64,000 nucleotides of DNA, from the IMG/VR virus record IMGVR_UViG_3300027974_001530, one strand, 5' to 3'. The notes under the pieces were generated by a model that saw only the letters and a list, made by a program, of their open reading frames with translations, did not search any database and had not been told where the DNA came from. This document shows, one piece after another, positions 7,887-54,403 of the stretch; the first letter of the stretch is position 1, and the number at the start of each line of letters is the position of its first letter. A program made the translations under genes and the position numbers. This stretch comes from a virus. Taxonomy: Duplodnaviria > Caudoviricetes.

Positions 7887-9659
7887 TTACCTACCACCAA
7901 ATAACCACCCGTATTTAATGTAATCATCTTTTGTAGCGGCATTAATTTCCCTACCAAAATTATCTCTTTTAACATTCATGTTAGGTAACAATGGATTAAA
8001 GTGAGCCTCTTTTGCAACAGAATCATTTGACGCTACGGTCCAAGACTCCAACATAACCTTAGCTTGTTGGGCAACCTTTTCTAATTTTGTAAAGGAAGAC
8101 TCCCCAACATAAATCGCCATTGATATCCCCATGATAAGGTCATCATGTTGTCCTCTTTGGTGATCTGGTCTACCATTTACATATATAAAAGTGTTCATTT
8201 CATTATATAATCTAACACTTTTTATTTTAAATTTGTGTCTAACCGCCTCCTCAAATGCCGCAATTATTTGTACTCTTTTGTTATTAAAGTTAATTCCGGG
8301 GATTTTATCCACCGCCTTACTTGCATTAGCCCATATACTTGTGGTATCAATACCCTCAACGTATAAACTTTTGTACCCTAATTCTTGTAATTTTCTAACT
8401 GTTGTTATTCCCATACCTCCGGTGATATCGACAACAATAAACGCATTATACATAATCCCCCATTTATATGCGATCTCAGCAAGAGAATCAGGTGGAATTT
8501 TACCAACGTATTCAAAAACTTGTTCTCTCGCATCAAAATCAATAATTTGTATTGAACTAAAATCCTCACTATCCCCTCTTGATACGTCAACCCCCATTAT
8601 GTATTTATTGCCCAATATTGGTTCTTTCCACATCCATAATGAGTTACCCATTAATTTACCTTCAGGTTCTAAAAGGGTGTTATTTTTTATTTCCTCTAAT
8701 TGTTTATTATCAAATACATTATCCCCTGAACCTAAGAACTCACAATTTAACTCTTGATTGATCTTCCTCTTATCGTACTTTAATTTTTTAACCATTTTTT
8801 CGTACCAATTTGAACACGGTTTGTATCCCTCTTTAAAGTATTTAGATATTTCCGTATGATCCCTAACATACGGGTCAATATGTGCAAAGGAGACATGTTT
8901 AGACTCATCCTGTTCATCTTTATTTAAAAGATAATGTACAAGATCATCTGTAGGAACTAAAAACAAATCTTTGGCGTATCTTGGATCTCTCCACCAAAAC
9001 ATTTCAGAAATTTTAAAGTTATTAAAACCTTTTAATGTTTGATCATATATTTCGTAATATATTGGGTCATAACCATTTGGTGTTGATACTACAATTACTT
9101 TACCTCCAGTAGATAACGAGGCCATACAAGCCGGCCAAAAATCACTATCGGCCTCGATAAATGCCGCCTCATCAAACACAAGAATGGTTGGGGTAAATCC
9201 ACGTAACGCATCTTTTGATGTTGCTACCGCCTTTACTTCACTACCATTATTTAATTTATAATGTTTTTGTGAGTTTTTATCTATGGAAAATCCAGCACCA
9301 ACCCACGAAGGCCATTGATCAACAAACGCTCTTATTTTATTAGCCATTTCCATTGAGGTATCAAGTTTGTTGGCAATTATTAGAATTTTTTCAGGTTGGG
9401 TCTTTTTTGCAAAAACTAACCTTTTTGATACCCAAGCCGCAGTAACGGTAGAAACTCCTGCCTGTCTATATTTTAATGCAATGTTCTCTTCGTAGTCCTC
9501 GTAATCTTTCAATAAAGAAACTTGATCAGGAAATAGTTGTAATGGTACGTATTTAGATACTGTATTATCGTATGTTTGTAGATATGTTTTTAAAGCGTAT
9601 TCCGTATCTTTCATACACCTAACATATTCTAACATCACTTGTTCTTTTGTTAAACTCAT
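7887..9659 (-). CDS. Terminase large subunit (T4 gp17-like)
   Basis: KYRQAGVST, Walker B ILVFDEAAF, VSTPNG, GVDVSRG, HDDLIMG nuclease motifs. Confidence 0.96.
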   Translation of the reverse strand: MSLTKEQVMLEYVRCMKDTEYALKTYLQTYDNTVSKYVPLQLFPDQVSLLKDYEDYEENIALKYRQAGVSTVTAAWVSKRLVFAKKTQPEKILIIANKLDTSMEMANKIRAFVDQWPSWVGAGFSIDKNSQKHYKLNNGSEVKAVATSKDALRGFTPTILVFDEAAFIEADSDFWPACMASLSTGGKVIVVSTPNGYDPIYYEIYDQTLKGFNNFKISEMFWWRDPRYAKDLFLVPTDDLVHYLLNKDEQDESKHVSFAHIDPYVRDHTEISKYFKEGYKPCSNWYEKMVKKLKYDKRKINQELNCEFLGSGDNVFDNKQLEEIKNNTLLEPEGKLMGNSLWMWKEPILGNKYIMGVDVSRGDSEDFSSIQIIDFDAREQVFEYVGKIPPDSLAEIAYKWGIMYNAFIVVDITGGMGITTVRKLQELGYKSLYVEGIDTTSIWANASKAVDKIPGINFNNKRVQIIAAFEEAVRHKFKIKSVRLYNEMNTFIYVNGRPDHQRGQHDDLIMGISMAIYVGESSFTKLEKVAQQAKVMLESWTVASNDSVAKEAHFNPLLPNMNVKRDNFGREINAATKDDYIKYGWLFGGR

Positions 9660-30984: not shown

Positions 30985-31075
30985 AACGTTTTTTTTAATA
31001 AATAATAAATAAAATACCCAAAACTATACCAAATGAGCGGGGTCTGTCCCATAATGAACAAACCCCACATTCTTT

Positions 31076-31852
31076 TTATTTAAACCAAAGGTGTGACATT
31101 TTTTGAAGAACTTTGGTGTCACCTTCCCAAGACTTGATTTGTGAATTTGGAACCCAAAATTCCATCTCACCGATCTCCTCAACCCTCTTAAGGTATTCTT
31201 CACGGAATTTGTCAACTTGATTCACATCCGTAATGTATGTAACCCCCATGTGTTTAGCACATGTCTTACCCATTTTAGTCAACATTGAGAACTCGTCTGT
31301 AAGAGTCTTAGCACAACACACACAAACATCCCCACGTTTTACGGTCATTTTACCTGAGAATTTAACCGCCTTTGATGTGAAAGACAAAACTTTAGTGATA
31401 TCCAAAAGGATTGGGTTAAAGTTAAGTCCGTATTGTTCTTTAAGTTGTTGTCCGATTTTTCGACCAACTTTGATTGTGTCTCCAATCGCAGGAACGTTAA
31501 CTTTACGGATAACAGTTTTGTTCTCCTCTTTATCGATTTGTTTCAAACCAGTAGAGATCTGTTTTTCAGAAAGTTTACCGTATTGGTTAAGTTTGTTTTT
31601 AAGGTCAATAACGAAAGAGTTAGGACCTTCGTAAGATGCGATTTTTTTCATATCGTCAGTCATCTCAACTGATTTTGCCTCAACAGGATTGTTGAAAATC
31701 TTCTCAACCGCAGATCTTTGGTTAACTGTCAAAGAACCGTATTTAGAGACTGCGTCCTTCATTTTCAAGATGAAAGAATTTTTACCGTTGTAGTTTTTTA
31801 CCTGAGTTGTGATGTCTGTCGTCATATCCTTAATGTTTTTTGGTTTAAACAA
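31076..31852 (-). CDS. Hypothetical protein with DUF6011-like Zn finger
   Basis: CVCCAKTLTDEFS..MGKTCAK. Confidence 0.65.
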   Translation of the reverse strand: MFKPKNIKDMTTDITTQVKNYNGKNSFILKMKDAVSKYGSLTVNQRSAVEKIFNNPVEAKSVEMTDDMKKIASYEGPNSFVIDLKNKLNQYGKLSEKQISTGLKQIDKEENKTVIRKVNVPAIGDTIKVGRKIGQQLKEQYGLNFNPILLDITKVLSFTSKAVKFSGKMTVKRGDVCVCCAKTLTDEFSMLTKMGKTCAKHMGVTYITDVNQVDKFREEYLKRVEEIGEMEFWVPNSQIKSWEGDTKVLQKMSHLWFK

Positions 31853-31897
31853 AGATAAGGGAATTTCTGAGATCTACAAAATTTTTTTAAAAAAATG

Positions 31898-31969
31898 TAG
31901 CCCCACCTAGAATCGAACTAGGAACTAATCTTTAGAAGAGATTCGTTATATCCATTTAACTATGGGGCC
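31898..31969 (-). tRNA. tRNA-Arg(TCT)
   Basis: Manual cloverleaf; loop CTTCTAA. Confidence 0.95.
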
Positions 31970-32013
31970 ATTTTTAATATAGTAATATTTTACTAAAAAA
32001 TAAATATATTTTG

Positions 32014-32088
32014 TGGTCCCAGCAGGACTCGAACCTGCGACCCCTTGATTATGAGTCAAGTGCTACTAACCAACTGAGCTATAGGACC
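32014..32088 (-). tRNA. tRNA-CAT (elongator Met or Ile2)
   Basis: Cloverleaf; loop CTCATAA; G1-C72 paired; C4-G69. Confidence 0.9.
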
Positions 32089-32092
32089 TTTG

Positions 32093-32167
32093 ATGTCAGG
32101 GTGGGATTCGAACCCACAATGAGCAACCATAAAGGACTCGGCACCATGCCTCATTACACTCCTGACA
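32093..32167 (-). ncRNA. Non-canonical tRNA-like RNA, copy 1
   Basis: TGTCAGG/CCTGACA acceptor and canonical T-arm; no canonical anticodon arm. Confidence 0.7.
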
Positions 32168-32177
32168 AACAACGACT

Positions 32178-32264
32178 CTTCAGCATTCTACTCCCCGCAC
32201 ATACATAAATGTAACACGAAATTGTATCTAATTTAACCCTACGTTGGCGGTACGGGTACTGAAG
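32178..32264 (-). ncRNA. Unassigned structured RNA
   Basis: Stacked closing helices CTTCAGTA/TGCTGAAG and CCCGTAC/GTGCGGG. Confidence 0.45.
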
Positions 32265-32272
32265 TTTATCAT

Positions 32273-32359
32273 TGGTACTCGAAGAGGGACTCGAACCCTC
32301 ACAACCCACTGGTCAACAGAGCTTAAACCTGTCGTGTCTACCAATTCCACCATCCGAGC
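32273..32359 (-). tRNA. tRNA-Leu(TAA)
   Basis: Class II cloverleaf with encoded CCA. Confidence 0.95.
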
Positions 32360-32370
32360 ATTTTAAAGAG

Positions 32371-32433
32371 TTATTTTCTCTTTCTTACCATAAAGATAAA
32401 CAAAACAAATAATACAAATAATATTGGTGTCAT
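32371..32433 (-). CDS. Hydrophobic mini-peptide (20 aa)
   Basis: MTPILFVLFVLFIFMVRKRK. Confidence 0.3.
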   Translation of the reverse strand: MTPILFVLFVLFIFMVRKRK

Positions 32434-32449
32434 AATTTTTTAATATTTG

Positions 32450-32523
32450 TAGTCAGGACAGGACTCGAACCTGCAATCTCCCCAACATTCTGTCGGGGCG
32501 CGTTACCAATTAGCCACCTGACT
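32450..32523 (-). ncRNA. tRNA-like RNA with 9-nt anticodon loop (ACAGAATGT)
   Basis: Acceptor AGTCAGG/CCTGACT, D- and T-arms present; loop lacks U33. Confidence 0.7.
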
Positions 32524-32531
32524 AAATATTG

Positions 32532-32670
32532 TTGATAGTGATGGAGTACCCTTCTCGCTCCAATCTTAACTGCGTCTTCTGAGTTTTCTCAGGGCCCCGG
32601 CAGAGGGTGCTGAATTCCTGATCCACTCTGGATTGTCGACATCCGTTGAGGTGGGGAAAACCACTATCAA
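32532..32670 (-). ncRNA. Unassigned ~140-nt multibranch RNA
   Basis: 10-bp terminal helix TTGATAGTGG/TCACTATCAA; four internal hairpins; directly after boxA-like motif. Confidence 0.7.
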
Positions 32671-32690
32671 TATTTCAAAGAACTCTCTTT

Positions 32691-32766
32691 TGGCGGAGAT
32701 TACGGGAGTCGAACCCGCTCCGAACGCCGTGACAGGGCGACATCTTAACCATTTGACCTAATCTCC
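32691..32766 (-). tRNA. tRNA-Asp(GTC)
   Basis: Cloverleaf, G73, CCA. Confidence 0.95.
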
Positions 32767-32826
32767 AATAACCACACTTTAAAACCGTAGAGGTACAACT
32801 TGTGTGCTATGTTGTTCATTTCATTG

Positions 32827-32898
32827 TAGTCCCACCGGGAGTCGAACCCGACTTTCCAGGATGAAAACCTGGCGACCTAACCGATAGTCGATGGGACC
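32827..32898 (-). tRNA. tRNA-Glu(TTC)
   Basis: Cloverleaf; loop TTTTCAT. Confidence 0.93.
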
Positions 32899-32909
32899 AT
32901 TTTGTTTTA

Positions 32910-33191
32910 TTACAAACCTAACATTTCACCAACTTTTTTGAAATGTTTTTCAATTTTATTCAAAGAGGAGGTAGCCTTTTGTTTGGTTTTGAAGTACACG
33001 TAGAACTGACCACTTTCAGAATCAAATTCACCATCAATCTTTAAGACATTCTGAACAAAACTTTCAAACTCATATGCGTCTTCCCATTCACGGATTGTGT
33101 TTTTGTTTGGGTATCCTGTCAAACAATAATCATATCCCTCAATCTTTATAATTCTTAAACCTACTGTTTTAATTGTCTCTGTGTTTGTCAT
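32910..33191 (-). CDS. Hypothetical protein
   Basis: ORF behind a TTTG-N20-TATCTTTG promoter. Confidence 0.75.
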   Translation of the reverse strand: MTNTETIKTVGLRIIKIEGYDYCLTGYPNKNTIREWEDAYEFESFVQNVLKIDGEFDSESGQFYVYFKTKQKATSSLNKIEKHFKKVGEMLGL

Positions 33192-33428
33192 AGTTCTTTA
33201 TTTTTGTTCTACAAAGATATGTAATCTATTTTGATCTACCAAATCTTTTTTTAAATTTTTTTGTGGGACCCGCTCCCCACCCTAAACTTGTACTTCGTTC
33301 TATTAAGCGTTTTTTTCAGTTTCTTCAACCAGTCAGTATTCGTGTTAACTCTAATCATTTTAACTTTCGATGACTCTGAGGTTCCTGATAAAACTTCTCT
33401 CATCATTCATTTGTATTAATTGTTTATT

Positions 33429-33501
33429 TGGTGGACACTGTGGGAATCGAACCCATACGATCTGATTGCAAATCAGTCGACCTGCCGTCGGCATCAGGCC
33501 C
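33429..33501 (-). tRNA. tRNA-Ala(TGC)
   Basis: Loop TTTGCAA, G3:U70, CCA; imperfect acceptor stem. Confidence 0.8.
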
Positions 33502-33506
33502 ATTTG

Positions 33507-33578
33507 TGCGGGTAGAATGAATCGAACACTCGTCTCCACATTGGAAGTGTGGAGTAATAACCATTATACGATACCCGC
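33507..33578 (-). tRNA. tRNA-Gly(TCC)
   Basis: Cloverleaf; loop CTTCCAA. Confidence 0.93.
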
Positions 33579-33584
33579 TTATTG

Positions 33585-33665
33585 TACTGACGGTTGGATT
33601 CGAACCAACGTTTTAAACTTACCACTACAGTCATAGACGATATAAGCGTCCACTGGTACGTCAGC
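33585..33665 (-). ncRNA. tRNA-like RNA without a D-arm
   Basis: Acceptor GCTGACG/CGTCAGT and T-arm GTTGG/CCAAC; middle folds as a long stem capped by a CTTATAT loop. Confidence 0.7.
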
Positions 33666-33671
33666 ATTTAG

Positions 33672-33742
33672 TAGCGGATTCAGGGCTCGAACCTGGCCTC
33701 AGGGTTATGAGCCCCGTGTGCTACCAATTACACTAAACCGCA
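33672..33742 (-). tRNA. tRNA-fMet(CAT)
   Basis: 1:72 mismatch; three G-C pairs closing loop CTCATAA. Confidence 0.85.
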
Positions 33743-33747
33743 ATATG

Positions 33748-33869
33748 TAGGTAAAACAGGATTCGAACCTGTACGATATAGTTCCCTTTTCAAGAGACAT
33801 CCCCAGCTATATCTCGGTGACTTCTTACGGGGAATAAACCTAAGCGTCTGCCAATTCCGCCACTTACCT
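33748..33869 (-). ncRNA. 122-nt tRNA-like RNA with Leu-type D-arm and ~70-nt central domain
   Basis: AGGTAAG/TTTACCT acceptor, GCGGAATTGGCAGACGC D-arm, ACAGG-TTCGAAT-CCTGT T-arm. Confidence 0.75.
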
Positions 33870-33882
33870 ATTTAAAATTTTT

Positions 33883-33957
33883 TTGTCAGGGCCGGACTCG
33901 AACCGGATAAGCAACCTATAGGATTCGGGCACCGTCCCTCATTACGCCCACCTGACA
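33883..33957 (-). ncRNA. Non-canonical tRNA-like RNA, copy 2
   Basis: Paralog of 32093..32167; same length and conserved core. Confidence 0.7.
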
Positions 33958-33969
33958 AATTTATGTAGT

Positions 33970-34054
33970 TAGTAGTTGACTCACACTCTTGTTTCACCAT
34001 CTTGAGCCAACAGGTTAATGTACTTTACAAGTTTCCCGTTTCTTACAACCACTA
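33970..34054 (-). ncRNA. Unassigned structured RNA
   Basis: 9-bp closing helix TAGTGGTTG/CAACTACTA; GCTCA/TGAGT arm; follows boxA-like GTTCATTGAAA. Confidence 0.5.
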
Positions 34055-34155
34055 TATTTTTATTTCAATGAACTTCTTCTGTCTTCACGGGAGTAGGACA
34101 CCAACCTCTCACTTCCTACCCCCGTTGTTTGTCTTACAAATATACAAGGTTTTTT

Positions 34156-34320
34156 CTAATCTACCAAACTTTTTTTGTGTTTTTCTTTCCTTGTGTAATT
34201 ATTTTTTAAATCCATAGATCTAGTAACAAATCTACCATCAAAAAAACCTTGTTCTTTTTGAGCAACCCTTTGACTACCCAAGATCATCTTATGTACGATA
34301 TTTTTTTCCTTTGTTTTCAT
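34156..34320 (-). CDS. Small basic protein, ArfA-like C-terminal motif (54 aa)
   Basis: Manual translation ends FDGRFVTRSMDLKNNYTRKEKHKKSLVD. Confidence 0.5.
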   Translation of the reverse strand: MKTKEKNIVHKMILGSQRVAQKEQGFFDGRFVTRSMDLKNNYTRKEKHKKSLVD

Positions 34321-34321
34321 T

Positions 34322-34612
34322 TTAACAGTATCTTAAAATTTGAGTAATTAATTTATTTATATCCTCTTTAGTCTGATAACCCAAAACATCATTAGTTATT
34401 TTTGTGTCATAAGAAATTTCCCAATCATCTTTTGTTCCTTTAATAACGGCGACCTCATAATCATCATCATCTGAAGTATATGATCCACCCCCACCAAAAG
34501 GAGATTTAAATCTTACAACCGAGATTCCGTATCCTCCAGGAAAAAACAGTAATCCGTGAACCCCATTACCAATACCATGTGGTTTAAACTCTATATCATC
34601 AAATGTTATCAT
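34322..34612 (-). CDS. Hypothetical phage protein
   Basis: FPGGYGISVV..YEVAVI; start re-called at MITFDD behind a promoter. Confidence 0.75.
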   Translation of the reverse strand: MITFDDIEFKPHGIGNGVHGLLFFPGGYGISVVRFKSPFGGGGSYTSDDDDYEVAVIKGTKDDWEISYDTKITNDVLGYQTKEDINKLITQILRYC

Positions 34613-34850
34613 AAAACAAAGATACTGTTTATTTTTTAATTTCCAAAATTTCAAAGAACAAAAAAACCCACCTCTTTTGGAGATGGGTTTTCAAAATTTA
34701 TTATGTGTTAAATTATCATACCATCTCCTTATAGGAACGATCCTCAGCTATCGCCAATCCGCCTAATAATATGATATGTAAATTTTTCATTTGCGTTTTT
34801 ATTTGTTTTGTTATAAATATATGATACTTTTTAAAAGTGTCAAGTTTTAT

Positions 34851-35183
34851 TTAATAATTTCCATCTTCATCGTCGTAATCTTCATCTTCTTCACCAACTA
34901 TTGCGTAGTTAAGTTCATCAAGAATTACATTAACAGGGATCTCATCACCTTCTTCATTATAAAACATACCTTCAGTTCCATACTCAGAATAGTCAACAAG
35001 AGTAGACCCCTCTTCAACAAGTTCATTATACATGTCAATGACATCTTGTGGGTTAGCACTTTTTCCAAGTTCCATTCTAACACCCTCATACATACTTGGG
35101 ATACGAATCATACCCTCTTTATTTTCATTAATTACACGTTTAACAATACGTGATAAGTCTCTTTCTGTTAATCTATTTCTCAT
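34851..35183 (-). CDS. Hypothetical protein with RLTERDLSRIVKRVINE motif
   Basis: ORF track; shared motif. Confidence 0.85.
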   Translation of the reverse strand: MRNRLTERDLSRIVKRVINENKEGMIRIPSMYEGVRMELGKSANPQDVIDMYNELVEEGSTLVDYSEYGTEGMFYNEEGDEIPVNVILDELNYAIVGEEDEDYDDEDGNY

Positions 35184-35206
35184 TTTTATGTTTTTTATAT
35201 TTTTTA

Positions 35207-35539
35207 TTATGCATATTCTTCATCATCAAAGTCTTCGTCCTCATCGGCATTATAAAAACCTTCTTGGTTTAATAATTTTTCAATTTCATCAGCTAAATCT
35301 TCATTATTATCAGCATATAACGCCTCAATAATATCAAATTCATCCATTGAATTGATTTCTTCAATGTCATATCCACATTCATTTTCAAGGAAATCTCTCG
35401 CCTCTTCAATTAACTCTTGAAGTTCTTCACTATAGTACGGATCATACATACTTCTGTCTTTATAGTTGTCATTTTCATTAATTACACGTTTAACAATTCT
35501 TGTTAAATCTGATTCTGTTAGTCTAATTACTTTTTTCAT
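35207..35539 (-). CDS. Hypothetical protein with RLTESDLTRIVKRVINE motif
   Basis: ORF track; shared motif. Confidence 0.85.
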   Translation of the reverse strand: MKKVIRLTESDLTRIVKRVINENDNYKDRSMYDPYYSEELQELIEEARDFLENECGYDIEEINSMDEFDIIEALYADNNEDLADEIEKLLNQEGFYNADEDEDFDDEEYA

Positions 35540-35578
35540 TAAATGTTTTATTAATAAATATTCAATATACGATTTAAA

Positions 35579-35821
35579 TCACCACTTTCTTTTTTTATCA
35601 AGTTTTTTTGTTTTTTGATCCTCGATCATAGTTGCGTACTCATCTTTGGTTAATCTTTTAAAAGACTCATTATCCACATTACCAAATCTTTTTTTTGCAC
35701 TCGCCATTACTTGGATGAAGTTCTTACTCCACAAAATATTTGACCCTGCGACTTTACCGTTTTGAATTATATCAAAAACGTATAGGTATTCTCCTTCTTT
35801 ATTTTTCATCAACTTTTCCAT
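35579..35821 (-). CDS. Hypothetical protein (80 aa)
   Basis: Track ORF trimmed to MEKLMKNK because the upstream part overlaps two tRNAs. Confidence 0.7.
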   Translation of the reverse strand: MEKLMKNKEGEYLYVFDIIQNGKVAGSNILWSKNFIQVMASAKKRFGNVDNESFKRLTKDEYATMIEDQKTKKLDKKRKW

Positions 35822-35840
35822 CTTCACTTTTTTTTGTTTG

Positions 35841-35914
35841 TACCTCCGGCAGGACTCGAACCTGCAAAATTCACTTTCTAAGAGTGACGTGTATACCAAT
35901 TCCACCACGAAGGC
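35841..35914 (-). tRNA. tRNA-Leu(TAG), short variable loop
   Basis: Leu-type D-arm; loop CTTAGAA; variable region only ATTTT. Confidence 0.85.
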
Positions 35915-35921
35915 ATTTTTG

Positions 35922-35994
35922 AGCTCAGGGAGGGATTCGAACCCCCGTACCAAGGTTTTGCAGACCTGGGCCTAAACCACTCGACCACCTGAGC
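35922..35994 (-). tRNA. tRNA-Cys(GCA)
   Basis: Cloverleaf; U73. Confidence 0.95.
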
Positions 35995-35996
35995 AA

Positions 35997-36452
35997 TTAA
36001 CGGCAGTGGTGATCTGCCGCTCTTGTTGCAATTTGATTGTCAGGTTTAATATTTGCTTTATAACCTAACGACGTTGCCCACCCAACAACAGGAGAAACAA
36101 GTTTTGAACTGTAATGTTTATCTTCACAATTATAATCCAAATCTATTTCAACCTTAACTTTTACTTTTTGAGTTAACCATTCGGCAACCTCAATTGAATA
36201 ATCGGCTTCATTCCAAAGACGTGTCCACTTGTCTTTTATTTTTTTCACTTTTTGTTTGTGTAGGATGTAGTGAACACCACGATTACCATACCTGTAAGCA
36301 ATTACCGTAACATATACGGTACTTCTTCTATGGTTTTGTGAATCGGTTCCAATATGGATCTCAACCCATGGACATTCCTTTAAAACATCTAAGGTGTGTT
36401 TAACCACATCAGGTATCGCTTCACCATTAATTGTCCTAAATACTCTGTTCAT
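35997..36452 (-). CDS. YkuK/DUF458 RNase H-like protein
   Basis: IHIGTDSQ, RLWNEADYS, EIDLD, ATRAAD. Confidence 0.85.
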   Translation of the reverse strand: MNRVFRTINGEAIPDVVKHTLDVLKECPWVEIHIGTDSQNHRRSTVYVTVIAYRYGNRGVHYILHKQKVKKIKDKWTRLWNEADYSIEVAEWLTQKVKVKVEIDLDYNCEDKHYSSKLVSPVVGWATSLGYKANIKPDNQIATRAADHHCR

Positions 36453-36468
36453 TATTTCTTTTTATTTG

Positions 36469-36541
36469 TGGACAGAGAGGGTGTCGAACCCCCGACTCCA
36501 GGATCTTCAATCCTGAGCTCTACCAACTGAGCTACCTGTCC
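36469..36541 (-). tRNA. tRNA-Phe(GAA)
   Basis: Cloverleaf; loop TTGAAGA. Confidence 0.95.
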
Positions 36542-36604
36542 TTCTTCAGGGAGGACTTGGTTGAGGTATCCTAATGGTTCTACCCTCAACTCTCGCCTCC
36601 CGTC

Positions 36605-37099
36605 TTATTTAACTTCAAACGCATGAAGTAATACACGTTTTTTCTTGGTTGAATCCTCGTGGTTACCAATTACCACACCATCTTTGATTGTGAAAGCGTG
36701 ACGACTAACTAACATAAAGAATGTCCCAATAGGGTTTTGTTTTGTAAATGTACCCACAGTCATTTTACGTTTAACTCTCTCACCCTTTACTTTAACATCG
36801 TACTCCAAAGTGTGTCTACGGTAATTGTTTAATTTACCAACACACTTAACTTTTTTGTAGTTTACTTGACTTCTATTTTCTGCAAGTTTAGTCATTTTAT
36901 CTACAGTACCATAAGTACCGTTACGATCTCTACGACCAAAATTTTCTCTAACGTATTTGTGAGCGTAATCGTAAGACACATCAAAACAAGATGCAAATGC
37001 TCTTACAACACAATCGTTGGTTTCATTTTTTGCGATTGCAGATTCTTCATAACCTTTAATGGCTTTTCCTGTATTACAATATGGTAGTGCGTCTTTCAT
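36605..37099 (-). CDS. Hypothetical phage protein (NDCVVRA motif)
   Basis: Cys and His motifs NDCVVRAF..SRHAFTIKDG; Bacteroidota-type promoter upstream. Confidence 0.8.
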   Translation of the reverse strand: MKDALPYCNTGKAIKGYEESAIAKNETNDCVVRAFASCFDVSYDYAHKYVRENFGRRDRNGTYGTVDKMTKLAENRSQVNYKKVKCVGKLNNYRRHTLEYDVKVKGERVKRKMTVGTFTKQNPIGTFFMLVSRHAFTIKDGVVIGNHEDSTKKKRVLLHAFEVK

Positions 37100-37145
37100 A
37101 CTGTAAAGATACGAAATTTTTTTTAACTGGCAAAATTAATTTTTG

Positions 37146-37217
37146 CACATGGTGTTAGAATCGAACTAACCCGTCGAGGTTTTGGAGACCTGACCGACAC
37201 CTTGTCTGTACCATGTG
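37146..37217 (-). tRNA. tRNA-Trp(CCA)
   Basis: Loop CTCCAAA; G73; irregular D-arm. Confidence 0.8.
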
Positions 37218-37224
37218 TGTTTTG

Positions 37225-37297
37225 TACCCCCACAGAGATTCAAACTCCGATCTTTCCCTTAGAAGGGGAACGTCCTGTTCAGTTGGACGATGGGGGC
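37225..37297 (-). tRNA. tRNA-Arg(TCT), second copy
   Basis: Cloverleaf; loop CTTCTAA; T-loop TTTGAAT. Confidence 0.9.
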
Positions 37298-37301
37298 AAA
37301 T

Positions 37302-37478
37302 AAAAGATGATAAATGACTTTATCAGGAATCTGGGGTTCGTATCACTACGACGCTTCACACACCATTAGAGAGTTGGGTTGTTACATCAATACAATTAAG
37401 ATTGAATACCTTTCCTTAGTGTGTACCCTTACGACACGTCTCTCCACGTCTGTCATTCTACGTTTCTTATCATCTTTT
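37302..37478 (-). ncRNA. Unassigned ~177-nt structured RNA
   Basis: Perfect 12-bp closing helix AAAAGATGATAA/TTATCATCTTTT, flush between two tRNAs; possible pseudoknot. Confidence 0.65.
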
Positions 37479-37479
37479 G

Positions 37480-37552
37480 TACCTTCGGCGAGACTCAAAC
37501 TCACATCTTGTGGTCCGTAGCCACAGGTTCTATTCTATTTAACTACGAAGGT
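37480..37552 (-). tRNA. tRNA-Arg(ACG)
   Basis: Cloverleaf; loop CTACGGA. Confidence 0.9.
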
Positions 37553-37687
37553 AATTAAAGAATTTTGGTCAACCACTCGCATCCCACCAATCTCTTGTAT
37601 CAAACTTTCTGTAGTCCAAACGATAACATCTCCTACTACTCATTCTCAACTCACTTGCCTAAGCCTTGTCCGTTGTAAATTCTTTTG

Positions 37688-37761
37688 GGTGAATGGTGGG
37701 TTTCGATCCCACTACTTTCGGCTTCACAAACCGACGCTCTCCCGATTGAGCTACAAACACC
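37688..37761 (-). tRNA. tRNA-His(GTG)
   Basis: G-1:C73; loop TTGTGAA; T-loop ATCGAAA. Confidence 0.88.
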
Positions 37762-37767
37762 ATATAG

Positions 37768-37835
37768 TCCCGTATGTTGGACTTGAACCAACCTCAAGTC
37801 GGATATGAGCCAACTTTGATCCCTGATCATACGGG
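37768..37835 (-). tRNA. Atypical tRNA-CAT with reduced D-arm (68 nt)
   Basis: CCCGTAT/ATACGGG acceptor; GTTGG-CTCATAT-CCGAC anticodon arm. Confidence 0.7.
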
Positions 37836-37849
37836 TTGTTGTTTTATAT

Positions 37850-37923
37850 CTATCCGGAAATTTTCCTAATAGATTATTCAATTGTAGATGTCTATCCGGA
37901 AAAAAAGTCATCCTATCCGGAAA
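37850..37923. repeat. Three direct repeats of CTATCCGGAAA
   Basis: Copies at 37850, 37892 and 37913. Confidence 0.8.
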
Positions 37924-37941
37924 ATTTCCGGATTTTAATCG

Positions 37942-38027
37942 AGGAAGACATTGGAATCGAACCAAATACCCTTACGGGTACATCTCGCTTAGCAGGCGGA
38001 CCCTATCTCCATCAAGGTTTATCTTCC
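37942..38027 (-). tRNA. tRNA-Ser(GCT)
   Basis: Class II; loop CTGCTAA. Confidence 0.88.
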
Positions 38028-38085
38028 ATAGAGTGTGGTACTCCTGCAGTAGTTGGGGCACCCACACAAGTTATTCCCCTTTTTG

Positions 38086-38158
38086 TGCTCACGATAGGTT
38101 ACGATCCTATTCTCTCCACGATATCAGCGTGGTGCTTTCCCGATTAAGCTACGTGAGC
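38086..38158 (-). tRNA. tRNA-Ile(GAT)
   Basis: Cloverleaf; T-loop ATCGTAA. Confidence 0.92.
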
Positions 38159-38165
38159 ATTGTTG

Positions 38166-38238
38166 CGGACAAGGTAGGGTACGATCCTACAACCCTCGTA
38201 TTAACAGTACGATGCTCTCCCAATTGAGCTACTTGTCC
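38166..38238 (-). tRNA. tRNA-Asn(GTT)
   Basis: Cloverleaf; G73; T-loop ATCGTAC. Confidence 0.93.
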
Positions 38239-38244
38239 ATTTTT

Positions 38245-38330
38245 TGGTGGGAGAGGAGGGACTCGAACCCCCAAGGTCTCACGACGACAGATTTACAGTC
38301 TGCTGAGCCAACCAATTGCTCAACTCTCCC
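38245..38330 (-). tRNA. tRNA-Tyr(GTA)
   Basis: Class II; CCA encoded. Confidence 0.95.
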
Positions 38331-38338
38331 AGTTCAGG

Positions 38339-38456
38339 AAAGGGGAAGATGGTTCCGTGGACATCCCCTTTTATGATTGGCGTTACTATGACAGTTAAAA
38401 CTCCGACATAACTACGAACTACTGACACGTTAACGTTATATCATTCCCCAATCAAC
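38339..38456 (-). ncRNA. Unassigned structured RNA between tRNA-Val and tRNA-Tyr
   Basis: TGATTGG/CCAATCA closes two hairpins; followed by an AAAGGGGA/TCCCCTTT hairpin. Confidence 0.5.
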
Positions 38457-38461
38457 CTTTG

Positions 38462-38535
38462 TACACCCTACAGGGATCGAACCTGTGACCTGTTGTATGT
38501 AAAACAACCGCTACTACCATCTGAGCTAAAGGTGC
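38462..38535 (-). tRNA. tRNA-Val(TAC)
   Basis: Cloverleaf; loop TTTACAT. Confidence 0.93.
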
Positions 38536-38537
38536 GT

Positions 38538-38753
38538 TTATGATGTTATCATTTTAATACTTTCAATTGTGGTAGAGTACATTCCTTGTTCAATATAAGG
38601 TTTACTATCTTTTAATAGTTTCAAAACAATTTCTGTTGCCTCGTTTTCGGATTTACCTTGTTTAACCAATCTTACGATTGCTCTCTCACATTCTTCCCCA
38701 ACCTTAACCATTCCGTTTGGCAGTCCTTTTTTAATTTTCTCTACTTTATTCAT
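38538..38753 (-). CDS. Hypothetical protein (71 aa)
   Basis: ORF four nt after a TTTG-N19-TAACTTTG promoter. Confidence 0.65.
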   Translation of the reverse strand: MNKVEKIKKGLPNGMVKVGEECERAIVRLVKQGKSENEATEIVLKLLKDSKPYIEQGMYSTTIESIKMITS

Positions 38754-38796
38754 AGTACAAAGTTAATGGTTTTTTTTAATCTACCAAATTTTTTTG

Positions 38797-38872
38797 TGTC
38801 CCCGACAGGGTTCGAACCTGTGACCCCTCCATTAAAAGTGGAGTGCTCTGAAACCAACTGAGCTACGAAGAC
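38797..38872 (-). tRNA. tRNA-Lys(TTT)
   Basis: Cloverleaf; loop CTTTTAA. Confidence 0.95.
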
Positions 38873-38877
38873 ATTAG

Positions 38878-38953
38878 TCGGGATACCAGGACTCAAACCT
38901 GGATGATGTCCACTTCCCAAAAGTGGCGACTTAGTCAATTAGTCCACATCCCG
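38878..38953 (-). tRNA. tRNA-Pro(TGG)
   Basis: Cloverleaf; loop TTTGGGA. Confidence 0.92.
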
Positions 38954-38959
38954 TTATAG

Positions 38960-39043
38960 AGGAAGAAGTAGGTGTCGATCCCAATACCTTTCGGTACCGC
39001 CCGTTTTCAAGACGGGGTCACAAGCCGTTGTGATTCATCTTCC
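38960..39043 (-). tRNA. tRNA-Ser(TGA)
   Basis: Class II; loop CTTGAAA; T-loop ATCGACA. Confidence 0.88.
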
Positions 39044-39049
39044 TTATTG

Positions 39050-39121
39050 TTGTTCCCCAAGGGTTCGAACCTCGATTCCATGGACCAAAACCATGTGTCC
39101 TGCCGATTAGACGAGGGAACA
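39050..39121 (-). tRNA. tRNA-Gln(TTG)
   Basis: Cloverleaf; loop TTTTGGT. Confidence 0.92.
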
Positions 39122-39158
39122 TTAATGAATCCAATATGTCAAAGAACTTTTTCTTTTG

Positions 39159-39231
39159 AGGTTCCTATCAGGGTCGAACTGATGACTCCGGGTTACAAAG
39201 CCGGGATATTACCAAACTATACTAAGGAACC
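39159..39231 (-). tRNA. tRNA-Thr(TGT)
   Basis: Cloverleaf; loop TTTGTAA; 31:39 mismatch. Confidence 0.88.
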
Positions 39232-39244
39232 AAATTTTTGGGTA

Positions 39245-39276
39245 TAAAAAAACCCTAACTGTTTTGAGTTAGGGTC
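39245..39276 (-). terminator. Intrinsic terminator (possible attenuator) just upstream of the tRNA array
   Basis: GACCCTAAC-TCAAAACA-GTTAGGGTT followed by a T-tract. Confidence 0.85.
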
Positions 39277-39307
39277 TTATATTTCTTATATGTTTAGTTA
39301 ATCTTTA

Positions 39308-39418
39308 TCAACTCATAAATAAAAATGCCCTATTATGCGACTTAAGCGTACGATACACGTTAAACGACCACTGAATGCTCGGGTTACAAATGTTCATATG
39401 TCTATTAGTTGTTTTCAT
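39308..39418 (-). CDS. Putative leader peptide (36 aa)
   Basis: MKTTNRHMNICNPSIQWSFNVYRTLKSHNRAFLFMS; stop ~30 nt before terminator; promoters directly upstream. Confidence 0.6.
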   Translation of the reverse strand: MKTTNRHMNICNPSIQWSFNVYRTLKSHNRAFLFMS

Positions 39419-39600
39419 CTTGTTATAAATATATTGTTTTTTCTAAAAATTTTAATTCTTGTACAAATATATGTGATTTTTTTTAATTGACAATCGTTTT
39501 TTCAATATTTTCCTGTTCTTCATCCAATCTACGTAAGAACACGTAGTAATCTTCCGATTCTATAAATTCGTTATGAATTAATTCTAAAATTTCTTCCATA

Positions 39601-39789
39601 TTATATTTTTTTTACTTCGTATATGTGACCTGAATCAGAATTAGTTTGGAAGATCTCTTTCATTTTTTCAGCCTCTTCGATGGTGTTAAATTCCCACACT
39701 TCAGTTTCGGTATTTAATAATATTACAGGAAGTCTTTTACCTGAAATTCCTTTATTATTTGTTTTTACGTGTTTAATTATAATGAACAT
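39601..39789 (-). CDS. Hypothetical protein
   Basis: ORF track. Confidence 0.65.
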   Translation of the reverse strand: MFIIIKHVKTNNKGISGKRLPVILLNTETEVWEFNTIEEAEKMKEIFQTNSDSGHIYEVKKI

Positions 39790-39833
39790 AAGTTTTTTAT
39801 TTAAAAATACTTAATACTTAAAACAATATCAAG

Positions 39834-41534
39834 TTAAAATCTTAATTTTGGTAGATCAAGTCTTCTATTTGGTTTTGGCGGATTAAACTCATCATTAATT
39901 TGTCTCTTTGTTTTTTGTTTTATTTGTTCAACATTTTTTCTTTGTTCTGTTACTATATTAACTTCAGTTACTTTTTCTTTGTTTTTAAGAATATTAAATA
40001 AAGGATTGTCCGAAACTACTTTTTGTTTTTTACGAATAAAAACTTCTTCTATTATTTTTGGTTCTTTGTTAAAAATAGAAACCAAACATTTTTCATTATT
40101 TGTTTCAACTATTTCAGGGTAAACAAACGTTTCTAAAATCCCATCATGGTCAATAATTTTAAAATCCCTTATGTTTAATTTTTTAGGATTGCCGTCACCT
40201 TTTTTAGATTTTGATATTTGTTGATATTGGAATCTTTTTGGTGATCTTAGTCCGGTGTCAGTACGACTTGTTAAACCATTATCATGAATTCTTCTTTTAA
40301 ATAAAGTTACAGGTGTATGTAGTATTTTACATTTTCTCTTATATAATCTACCCATAAAATCAGAATCAGCAGCACACATCCAAGGTTCAAAACCATTCAT
40401 ATTTAAGAATAATTCCTTAGTTATTGCAAACACACCCTCACCAAAAAGTGACTTATTTGACGGTGTAATACCAACACCAAAATCTTTATATTTTGGCTTT
40501 ATACAATCATATTTATCAATATTATTAATAATTGTTGACACTAATTCTTTTTCTGATATATCATCAGAATCAAAAAATAATAAATTTTTAGAATTACATA
40601 TACTTGTTAAAGTGTTCTTAATTGAGTAAGGACCTTCATTTTCATTGAAATAAAAAAATGTTACGTTTTTTGGGAACTTTTTTCCTTTAATAAAATCCAT
40701 AGTTTCTTTACACCCGTCAACCCCAATTAAAATCTCCACATTATAATTTTCTGTGGATTTGACCAAAGAATTTATACATTCGTCAAGGTAATTTGTATTC
40801 TTATATGTTGGTACAATTATAGATAAATCAAAATTATGTTTAGTCACTAATTTAGTTTTTAATCTTTCAGTATAATTCATTTTAGATTCATGATCCCCAT
40901 GAATTACCATAGATTTTTTGGTGTGGTATAGGAAAAACTTTTTTTTGTTTAATCTATCAGTTATTTGATGACCAACACCAGAACTTAGATTTGGGTTTTT
41001 AGACCACCTAGATAGTGGTATATCATATATTTTATAATCCAAGGACTCAAAAAACTTTTTTTCACAAATAAAACATAGGTCATTCCATTGCGTTTGATAA
41101 AAATCCCCATAATCCACCCCTTTAGGGTAACCCCAATTATCTCTAAGAACTCTATCGTCTGTTAATATGTTTAAACATATTTTTTTTCTTGAGTCAATTT
41201 TTATGTACATCTCTTTAGTTTCTTCAAAAAAATTATCAACTAATTTAATGTCGTCAGGTAAATAAATAAAATATTTAGAATGAATATTTTTTACAAATTC
41301 AAAAGTTTTATTAATAACATTATAATACTTTTTTTTACCCATGTTTGGGTAAATATCTATTTTTTTTACGTCATACCTACTAAGGTCATATTCAACGTCG
41401 CTACCATCATTAAAAACCGCAACCAAAACATTATAATCTTTTTTTTGGTTATTTATATCATCTAATAACCTTTTTAAAAAATCAGGTCTATTATATGTGG
41501 TAATTAAAATACAAAAATCATAAATTTTATCCAT
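39834..41534 (-). CDS. Glycosyltransferase with two GT2 (GT-A) domains
   Basis: ILITTYNR..NDGS..PDD; IIVPTYK..VDG..FFDSDD. Confidence 0.88.
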   Translation of the reverse strand: MDKIYDFCILITTYNRPDFLKRLLDDINNQKKDYNVLVAVFNDGSDVEYDLSRYDVKKIDIYPNMGKKKYYNVINKTFEFVKNIHSKYFIYLPDDIKLVDNFFEETKEMYIKIDSRKKICLNILTDDRVLRDNWGYPKGVDYGDFYQTQWNDLCFICEKKFFESLDYKIYDIPLSRWSKNPNLSSGVGHQITDRLNKKKFFLYHTKKSMVIHGDHESKMNYTERLKTKLVTKHNFDLSIIVPTYKNTNYLDECINSLVKSTENYNVEILIGVDGCKETMDFIKGKKFPKNVTFFYFNENEGPYSIKNTLTSICNSKNLLFFDSDDISEKELVSTIINNIDKYDCIKPKYKDFGVGITPSNKSLFGEGVFAITKELFLNMNGFEPWMCAADSDFMGRLYKRKCKILHTPVTLFKRRIHDNGLTSRTDTGLRSPKRFQYQQISKSKKGDGNPKKLNIRDFKIIDHDGILETFVYPEIVETNNEKCLVSIFNKEPKIIEEVFIRKKQKVVSDNPLFNILKNKEKVTEVNIVTEQRKNVEQIKQKTKRQINDEFNPPKPNRRLDLPKLRF

Positions 41535-53677: not shown

Positions 53678-54403
53678 TTATTTGTTATTCATTAATATAT
53701 TTATAACATCTTCCATTTCTTTATTACTTAATCTATGAATATCTTTGTGTTTATCAAACCAGTTTTTAACCACCATTTCATATGGTTTTTTTGCGATTTT
53801 TGATAATCTCTTGAACCCAAATACTTGAGCATCAATTTCATGTGGTTGTGTGTAATATTCGTAAGGATCCTCTTCTTCAGGACCATCTAAATCAAAAGTT
53901 TCTTTATTTCTTTGATCAATATGTCTTATTTCATGAGCAACCACTTGGTTTAACTCACCAACTAAATCATATAGTATTTTATTTTTTACATCAGGATTAT
54001 AATCTATTATAATTTCTATTATATCATCACTACCCCAGTAATTTCCATCAACGATAAAATCATCAACATCAAAGTTGGGGTTTATAATCACTTCAACGGA
54101 TAAGTTGTTTTCAAAATTAGTGAAATTATAAAAATCTTTATCATCATTTATGTAGTTGGGTAAATAAAATTCACCGTCTTCCTCTTGTTTAAATACTGAG
54201 ATGATATCTTTTACAATAACTCTTATGACTTCCCTACGTCTATTGTTCTCAAGTAACAGATCATTATATTTCATATTAATAAATATTAGTGTTGATTGTA
54301 TTTTTAATAATACGTATTTTTTTATAGAAGGTAAATTAATGAAACTATTAAACAAATAGAAAGTACTAAAAATGAAAAACAAATTTGATTTCGAAGACAT
54401 CAC
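53678..54403 (-). CDS. Putative zincin-like metalloprotease (true start probably MKYNDLLLE)
   Basis: AHEIRH (HExxH) and downstream HEIDA. Confidence 0.6.
   Translation of the reverse strand: MMSSKSNLFFIFSTFYLFNSFINLPSIKKYVLLKIQSTLIFINMKYNDLLLENNRRREVIRVIVKDIISVFKQEEDGEFYLPNYINDDKDFYNFTNFENNLSVEVIINPNFDVDDFIVDGNYWGSDDIIEIIIDYNPDVKNKILYDLVGELNQVVAHEIRHIDQRNKETFDLDGPEEEDPYEYYTQPHEIDAQVFGFKRLSKIAKKPYEMVVKNWFDKHKDIHRLSNKEMEDVINILMNNK

Follow-up and report, generated by a model that had tools for sequence, protein, structure and literature searches.

A candidate leader-peptide attenuator ahead of a phage tRNA array

Known attenuators and the phage leader locus

The leader attenuators of enterobacteria, namely those of ilvGMEDA (Ile, Leu, Val) and thr (Thr, Ile) together with trpL, hisL, leuL and pheL, comprise a promoter, a short translated ORF, alternative 1:2, 2:3 and 3:4 hairpins and a terminator placed before the regulated genes. 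A ribosome that stalls at hungry codons reads a shortage of charged tRNA, and some of these leaders sense more than one amino acid. The pheM leader, which attenuates the E. coli pheST operon for phenylalanyl-tRNA synthetase, is likewise a leader-peptide attenuator and adjusts the decoding machinery to the supply of charged tRNA. In T-box riboswitches (RF00230), the state of a specific tRNA decides between terminator and antiterminator before translation-related genes, yet uncharged tRNA is bound directly and neither an ORF nor a ribosome is needed. Finally, promoter-early stem-loop (PeSL) elements are mobile regulatory cassettes that flank small ORFs in variable regions of T4-type phages. Phage tRNAs are usually viewed either as constitutively expressed helpers of codon usage or as substitutes for those tRNAs of the host that are lost in infection, and to our knowledge the regulation of phage tRNA genes by the phage itself is essentially unknown. 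A full-text literature search, carried out mostly without subscription journals, returned no account of leader-peptide attenuation of tRNA genes.

The DNA analysed here (hereafter the window) is a stretch of 64,000 nucleotides from a Caudoviricetes virus, IMG/VR record IMGVR_UViG_3300027974_001530. On its minus strand, two promoter-like sites are followed by a 36-codon ORF, a hairpin at the stop codon, an intrinsic terminator and tRNA-Thr (Table 1), in good agreement with the original prediction of two promoters, such an ORF, a spacer of about 30 nt, a terminator and a first tRNA, each part lying at or near its expected position. The locus presents several features of the attenuator class, namely a maintained short ORF, a terminator, a maskable though weak antiterminator, and codon enrichment in the form of single codons rather than runs. 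It shares with the enterobacterial leaders the order of parts and, in its predicted folds, the alternative hairpins, and would share the reading of charged-tRNA shortage by a stalled ribosome if the inferred mechanism holds. However, it precedes tRNAs instead of biosynthetic enzyme genes, its codons cover 15 amino acids and 17 anticodons, most of them just once or twice, where the enterobacterial leaders have runs for one to three amino acids, the antiterminator strand falls within the final codons of the ORF, and it is phage-borne with Bacteroidota-type promoters. It also lacks sequence or covariance-model similarity to the curated Rfam Thr, His, Leu, Trp and Phe leaders, and an Rfam search of 31000-40500 with E up to 1 found neither a matching leader family nor a T-box. 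In being directed at the decoding machinery the locus would resemble pheM, which differs in controlling a synthetase, in responding to one amino acid via a run of Phe codons and in being chromosomal. Like PeSL elements, the window has repeated promoter and stem-loop modules, and its module is also found in a changed context; PeSL elements have not been described with a codon-matched leader or an antiterminator, whereas both are predicted here.

On the comparative evidence presented below, the best-supported reading of the locus is a ribosome-mediated leader-peptide transcription attenuator that would gate read-through from strong promoters into the first tRNA block, that is, leader-peptide attenuation in a new form. 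We assign this mechanism a probability of roughly 0.68; nothing experimental is available, and both translation of the leader and regulated read-through are inferred.

Table 1. Positions of the leader, tRNA and associated elements in the window
Feature	Position	Strand	Basis
Promoter P1, TTGTCA-16-TATATT (TTGTCA ... TATATTTG)	39464..39493, core 39493-39466	-	consensus scan, 10/12 matches
Promoter-like site P2, TTAAAA-16-TATATT within conserved motif ATATATTTATAAC	39422..39455, core 39455-39428	-	consensus scan
Segment 1, AAGATGAAAA, start codon and flanks	39412..39421	-	RNAalifold helix, alignment columns 48-56 with 146-154
Leader ORF, 36 codons including stop TGA (39310-39308)	39418-39308	-	ORF list, conserved openness
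Segment 2, TAGGGCATTTTTATTTAT, codons 29-34, antiterminator 5' strand, mimics terminator 3' arm	39315..39332	-	constrained folding and covariation
Stop-codon hairpin AGTTGAT-AAAG-ATTAACT, antiterminator apex	39296..39313	-	compensatory changes in 4/6 pairs
Segment 3, A-rich spacer and start of terminator 5' arm (AAGAAATATAAGACCCTA), antiterminator 3' strand	39270..39287	-	folding, covariation
Intrinsic terminator	39277-39246	-	9-bp stem, 6-nt loop, run of 7 T; dG -12 to -15 kcal/mol
tRNA-Thr(tgt), first gene past terminator	39231-39158	-	starts 14 nt beyond T run
Conserved 19-mer AAGTTCTTTGACATATTGG, between tRNA-Thr and tRNA-Gln	39131..39149	-	exact copies in IMG/VR
tRNA block 1, 17 tRNAs and interspersed small ORFs	39231-35840	-	ARAGORN, Rfam
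tRNA-Ser(tga), long variable arm	39043-38959	-	relaxed ARAGORN threshold only
tRNA-Ser-gct	38027-37943	-	relaxed ARAGORN/Rfam
tRNA-Trp	37217-37146	-	relaxed ARAGORN/Rfam
Second cassette: TTGACA...TATATTTATAAC promoter, 24-codon ORF, terminator	34843-34660	-	sequence, folding

Related IMG/VR contigs were gathered via the neighbouring GT2-type glycosyltransferase and then via the leader peptide itself. A stretch of about 250 nt that spans P1 and the terminator is found again in 26 distinct related sequences, where it stands ahead of Thr-Gln-Pro... arrays, and the upstream and flanking protein genes vary among these relatives. This recurrence, the openness of the ORF and its coverage of 15 amino acids confirm that the module is more than a chance arrangement. 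In one relative (L046, 1700-2300), a leader, terminator and promoter nearly identical to those of the window stand ahead of a different and far shorter array starting Trp-Cys-Leu; apparently the whole cassette moves or recombines together. Queries of a cultured-phage database with the region and with the neighbouring 566-aa glycosyltransferase, at DNA and protein level, returned nothing useful.

P1 is compatible with both sigma-70-like and Bacteroidota-type -33/-7 (TTG...TAnnTTTG) patterns, the latter being the promoter pattern described for Bacteroidota in the literature, and it is nearly invariant across the 26 relatives despite their differing upstream genes. P2 may alternatively be read as the conserved 5' UTR of the P1 transcript. 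The 13-mer that contains it, ATATATTTATAAC, recurs at 34810-34822, where it forms the -10/-7 part of the promoter of a second small-ORF cassette; a third exact copy at 53695 was set aside as probably due to chance, being located inside a gene on the other strand. The terminator stem, ACCCTAACT / AGTTAGGGT at 39275-39252, begins 32 nt past the ORF stop and is followed by a T run to 39246; compensatory changes occur at four of its pairs among the relatives, and 99% of the alignment cells are paired. Since tRNA-Thr starts only 14 nt after the T run, there is no room for a promoter of its own. Metatranscriptome contigs cover the leader at 39328-39500 (from relatives) and the tRNAs at 38000-39184; the terminator itself is not spanned by any of them, and transcript ends cannot be read from contigs.

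The leader ORF and its alternative RNA folds

No stop interrupts the leader ORF in any of the 23 distinct nucleotide variants, and indels occur only in multiples of three. In a neutral simulation, in which the observed substitutions were placed randomly on a minimum spanning tree in 2000 runs, 8.8 stops were expected in the ORF and no run was free of stops (0/2000). From this we infer that selection maintains the openness of the ORF; its lack of conservation would have refuted the original prediction. The identity of the encoded amino acids is only weakly constrained (dN/dS about 0.7), and synonymous codon changes number 30 against 22.7 expected, a marginal excess (P = 0.06). Residues present in a single copy shift position rather than vanish, as seen for Cys in L019, His in L007, Gln in L041 and Val, which moves between positions 9 and 21, while third positions, such as those of CCG and ACG, never vary. 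Weak amino-acid constraint in combination with invariant third positions points to constraint at the RNA level. Taken together with the maintained openness and the moving residues, these features fit a translated leader bound by composition and structure rather than a folded protein. The comparison implies that translation of the leader counts more than its peptide sequence, although translation itself has not been shown experimentally.

Could the ORF instead be a small-protein gene in its own right, served by a separate promoter and by an ordinary terminator that may leak, similar to the cassettes of T4-type phages, with the tRNAs expressed from promoters of their own such as the 19-mer? Several residues are indeed invariant (M1, K2, T3, P13, W17, Y22 and T24), the terminator is strong, and several other leader families carry the 19-mer, with its extended -10-like TGnCATATT, between the terminator and the first tRNA. 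Against this, the weak amino-acid constraint and the invariant third positions suggest that the RNA is what is constrained, Pfam holds no family for the peptide, and the space before tRNA-Thr would not accommodate a promoter. Furthermore, leaders of unlike sequence share geometry, arm complementarity and array-matched composition (see below), which a protein function does not predict. We therefore regard a small-protein gene as quite unlikely.

RNAalifold analysis of the 26 family sequences yields three helices, i.e., a start-codon helix, the stop-codon hairpin and the terminator. In this fold, the start-codon region AAGAUGAAAA pairs with UUUUCAUUU (codons 32-34); 98% of the cells are paired, the strands are almost invariant, and the changes are mostly to G-U, with one G-C compensation. 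When the terminator 3' arm is withheld, segment 2 pairs with segment 3 in 25 of the 26 family members, and this antiterminator helix (columns 141-154 with 190-207) is 95% paired with three pairs changed on both sides. Overall, the antiterminator state is 95% paired with seven pairs changed on both sides, as opposed to only 41-55% paired when the partners are slid, and the terminator state is 98% paired with nine such pairs. Folding of alternative structures, as the original prediction had called for, thus produces two covarying folds, which are mutually exclusive because columns 146-154 and 203-207 serve in both. As modelled, the set of folds corresponds to the classical 1:2, 2:3 and 3:4 arrangement, with the helix between segments 1 and 2 as a candidate anti-antiterminator. 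The stop-codon hairpin forms the apex of the antiterminator and may act as a pause hairpin, a role that is only inferred; comparable AU-rich hairpins are found at the stop codon in other leader families.

The antiterminator of the window is weak. Its composite hairpin is predicted at -11.2 kcal/mol against -14.9 kcal/mol for the terminator, and it is among the weakest compared. Two pairings between the ORF end and the terminator 5' arm had been proposed originally. One of them, TAGGG with CCCTA, lies within the conserved antiterminator; the other, TGAGTT with AACTCA, is the best simple duplex of the window (-7.4 kcal/mol) but was rejected, as close relatives have AACTA, AACCA or AACCC in place of the partner. 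TGAGTT is instead one arm of the covarying stop-codon hairpin, and its pairing with AACTCA could not stack with TAGGG:CCCTA because the partners are in the wrong order. Another possible partner of the 5' arm, the CAGTGGTC region 55-71 nt before the stop, rests on an invariant GACC:GGTC alone.

Nucleotide-level conservation of the 5' UTR, the start region and the ORF end, together with the covarying helices, would also suit a structured non-coding RNA, or an element of RNA stability or processing, in which the ORF is incidental. Such an element does not account for an ORF that has stayed open against 8.8 expected stops with all indels in frame, nor for a composition that matches the tRNA set, and the Rfam search (E up to 1) found no match for it. 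We consider this explanation very improbable.

Attenuation by a translated leader remains the preferred reading. Comparison establishes which parts are present, that they are conserved, that they can pair in alternative ways and that the codons match the block, every step of the mechanism being inferred. In the proposed scheme, transcription would start from P1 or P2 and a ribosome would translate the 36-codon leader. If decoding is fast, the ribosome would reach the last codons and the stop, cover segment 2 and melt the stop-codon hairpin; with segment 2 covered, the 5' arm of the terminator would pair with the 3' arm and transcription would end before tRNA-Thr. A stall anywhere in codons 2-25 would leave segment 2 free to pair with the A-rich spacer and the 5' arm, forming the antiterminator before the 3' arm is made, and the polymerase would then enter the array. 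If no ribosome is loaded, the start-codon region would pair with segment 2 and the terminator would form. In effect, the supply of tRNA would be subject to feedback from the speed at which the codons served by the block are decoded. The core of the original prediction, that stalling on a translated leader frees an antiterminator, gains comparative support from selection on the ORF, the covarying exclusive folds, the arm complementarity and the composition match. The host is presumed to belong to the Bacteroidota, from the promoter pattern only, and coupling of transcription and translation is not established there.

If correct, this would be the first case of leader-peptide attenuation controlling tRNA genes; it would place phage tRNA supply under feedback control by decoding speed, and a textbook mechanism would be found to act on another class of target genes and in Bacteroidota-type systems. 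The many tiny "hypothetical" ORFs ahead of phage tRNA clusters would be accounted for as well, and a compact natural part of about 230 nt would be available for monitoring how many codons are decoded simultaneously.

Leader codons and the downstream tRNA block

Default ARAGORN finds 22 tRNAs in the window, and relaxed ARAGORN together with Rfam adds three to block 1. With these three, Ser-gct, Trp and Ser-tga, block 1 comprises 17 tRNAs for 15 amino acids in the order Thr, Gln, Ser-tga, Pro, Lys, Val, Tyr, Asn, Ile, Ser-gct, His, Arg-acg, Arg-tct, Trp, Phe, Cys and Leu-tag. Neither default ARAGORN nor Rfam (E up to 1) picks up the tRNA-Ser(tga), a gene that relatives have conserved between those for Gln and Pro. 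Among the interspersed genes, the small protein genes at 35997-37099 and 38538-38753 on the minus strand encode products of 151 aa (phrog_11311), 164 aa (phrog_3754) and 71 aa (without family), some of them with promoter-like sites upstream; a PHROGs search of the ORFs within and next to the array matched only families without a known function.

The leader peptide uses 17 different amino acids and lacks only Asp, Glu and Gly, just as originally noted. Such diversity in 36 residues is not unusual by chance (P = 0.16). What stands is the match of the peptide to the first tRNA cluster, for which "array-matched" is a better term than "pan-amino-acid". All 15 amino acids of block 1 occur in the leader (P = 0.0023, exact, for 35 random residues of phage composition), and 32 of its 35 residues are matched to block 1 against 25.5 expected (P = 0.007). 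The match is concentrated where the scheme would place the stall: within codons 2-25, which precede segment 2, every one of the 15 amino acids and 17 anticodons of the block is represented (P about 4e-5). By standard rules the block-1 anticodons read 29 of the 36 leader codons, and two more by U34 four-box reading, which the match of Leu-tag to the leader CTT requires. Codons without a block-1 tRNA are two internal ATG (Met), GCA (Ala) and TTA (Leu), all but Met8 being located in the structure-constrained 3' end. In line with the original prediction, both Ser boxes and both Arg boxes of the leader are served within block 1 (Ser gct and tga, Arg acg and tct), and the Gly, Glu and Asp tRNAs are restricted to the distal cluster at 33578-32691. 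For most amino acids the leader has just one or two codons and not a run as in classical attenuators, so sensitivity to any one shortage may be low.

Within the family of the window, the L007 leader is the only one without Arg, and it precedes the only array without an Arg tRNA, as ARAGORN and Infernal agree. On the other hand, L046, L048, L054 and L055 carry near-identical leaders ahead of reduced arrays, which shows that the match between leader and array is not tightly maintained over short times. L007 also yields a sub-threshold match to the Rfam Thr_leader (RF00506) at 8062-8128 (26.5 bits against a gathering threshold of 55, E = 0.069); the match spans the ORF end and terminator and is probably driven by the hairpin.

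Other leader families and neighbouring elements

More than 100 further array loci were found via the conserved 19-mer, many of them with a different small ORF and terminator ahead of the array. Thirteen representative leaders of about 10 sequence families were compared, including the second cassette of the window. The best partner of the terminator 5' arm lies between -36 and -2 nt from the stop in all 13, with energies near those of the terminators. Pairings between each ORF end and its own arm sum to -176 kcal/mol, compared with -112 +/- 9 when partners are swapped, and none of 20000 permutations reaches the sum for own pairings. In a negative control of 39 terminators behind ordinary genes, there was almost no such effect (own -6.7, swapped -5.8). 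The simple duplex of the window is no better than shuffles (P = 0.22) and ranks 4 of 13 in its row. The gap between stop and terminator is 21-35 nt throughout the leader families.

An unbiased census took every array start in all fetched loci, and 84 of these starts follow a terminator at a distance of no more than 130 nt. For 82 of the 84 terminators there is an ORF, 22-47 codons long, that stops 10-45 nt ahead of the terminator; these ORFs encode 41 distinct peptides in 14 families. Leader residues are enriched for the amino acids of their own downstream array (Stouffer Z 6.3 over 14 families), own arrays match better than swapped ones (0/100000 permutations as good), and coverage of the array amino acids by the leader is complete in 11 of the 14 families. 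For example, the L133 leader contains all 16 amino acids of its array and lacks exactly C, H and S, which are likewise missing from the array; the L100 leader, ahead of Pro-Pro-Pro-Ala-Thr, is rich in T, A and P, and the L164 leader, ahead of Glu-Met-Gln-Gln, in Q, M and E. Three further leaders have an unusually broad composition: those of L119 (7290-7424) and L126, of 44 and 47 codons, contain all 20 amino acids, and that of L124 contains 19 of the 20 in 34 codons, with only Thr missing and no Thr tRNA in the 3.5 kb of array examined.

These data bear on whether the attenuator senses particular tRNAs or translation in general, in which case its cue would be how available ribosomes are, or how fast elongation overall proceeds compared with RNA polymerase, and its codons would merely be a representative sample of those of the phage. 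The folds and the arm complementarity fit such a general sensor equally well, the occurrence of most amino acids only once or twice would favour a sensor of global speed, and the retention of the same leader ahead of reduced arrays points the same way. Against it, leader composition follows its own array better than the arrays of other phages in the permutations, and leaders ahead of small arrays are strongly biased to just those amino acids, as in L141, where 18 of 31 residues come from the 6 amino acids of the array, and L099, where 26 of 37 come from 9; the L007 leader, moreover, has lost Arg together with the Arg tRNAs. A purely general sensor thus appears unlikely.

A broader possibility is a modular "decoding homeostat" in large phages, in which each tRNA block would stand behind a leader ORF written in the codons that the block reads, and precisely the tRNAs for slowly read codons would be raised. 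We lean towards this generalization only a little more than against it. As a matter of speculation, its triggers could be a scarcity of host tRNAs for the AT-rich phage codons or their cleavage by host anticodon nucleases. Such cassettes appear to be widespread, with about 14 families in the fetched contigs in addition to the second cassette of the window.

The ORF of this second cassette is rich in G, A, E, D, L and I. Its codons -11 to -2 from the stop are predicted to pair with the terminator 5' arm at -15.1 kcal/mol, compared with -14.1 kcal/mol for the terminator (P = 0.007). Homologues in L020, L062 and L165 stand directly ahead of Leu-Met-Ile-Gly-Glu-Asp arrays; in the window, ORFs are inserted between the cassette and block 2.

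The 19-mer has more than 120 exact copies in IMG/VR and is also present in the window at 34643-34659 (-) and 32667-32683 (-) with two mismatches. Its copies sit 6-16 nt (mode 8-9) upstream of tRNAs and of further structured RNAs rich in GC, some behind a terminator and some in the space separating two tRNAs, and the TGnCATATT within it is similar to an extended -10 element. The 19-mer may be an internal or phage-specific promoter, or a 5' processing signal; its extended -10-like motif and its position before many tRNAs suggest that part of the block may have its own promoter. Together with the promoter-like sites beside the block-internal ORFs, it could allow distal tRNAs to be expressed independently of the leader.

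Further downstream, a GC-rich and apparently structured stretch of about 240 nt (33885-34125, minus strand) follows a TTG...TATATTTG promoter at 34167-34139 and ends in a T-arm-like GGTTCGAGTCCGGCC and an acceptor-like stem, without being called by ARAGORN or Rfam. The next element, at 33869-33748, scores as a tRNA of 122 nt, possibly with an insertion.
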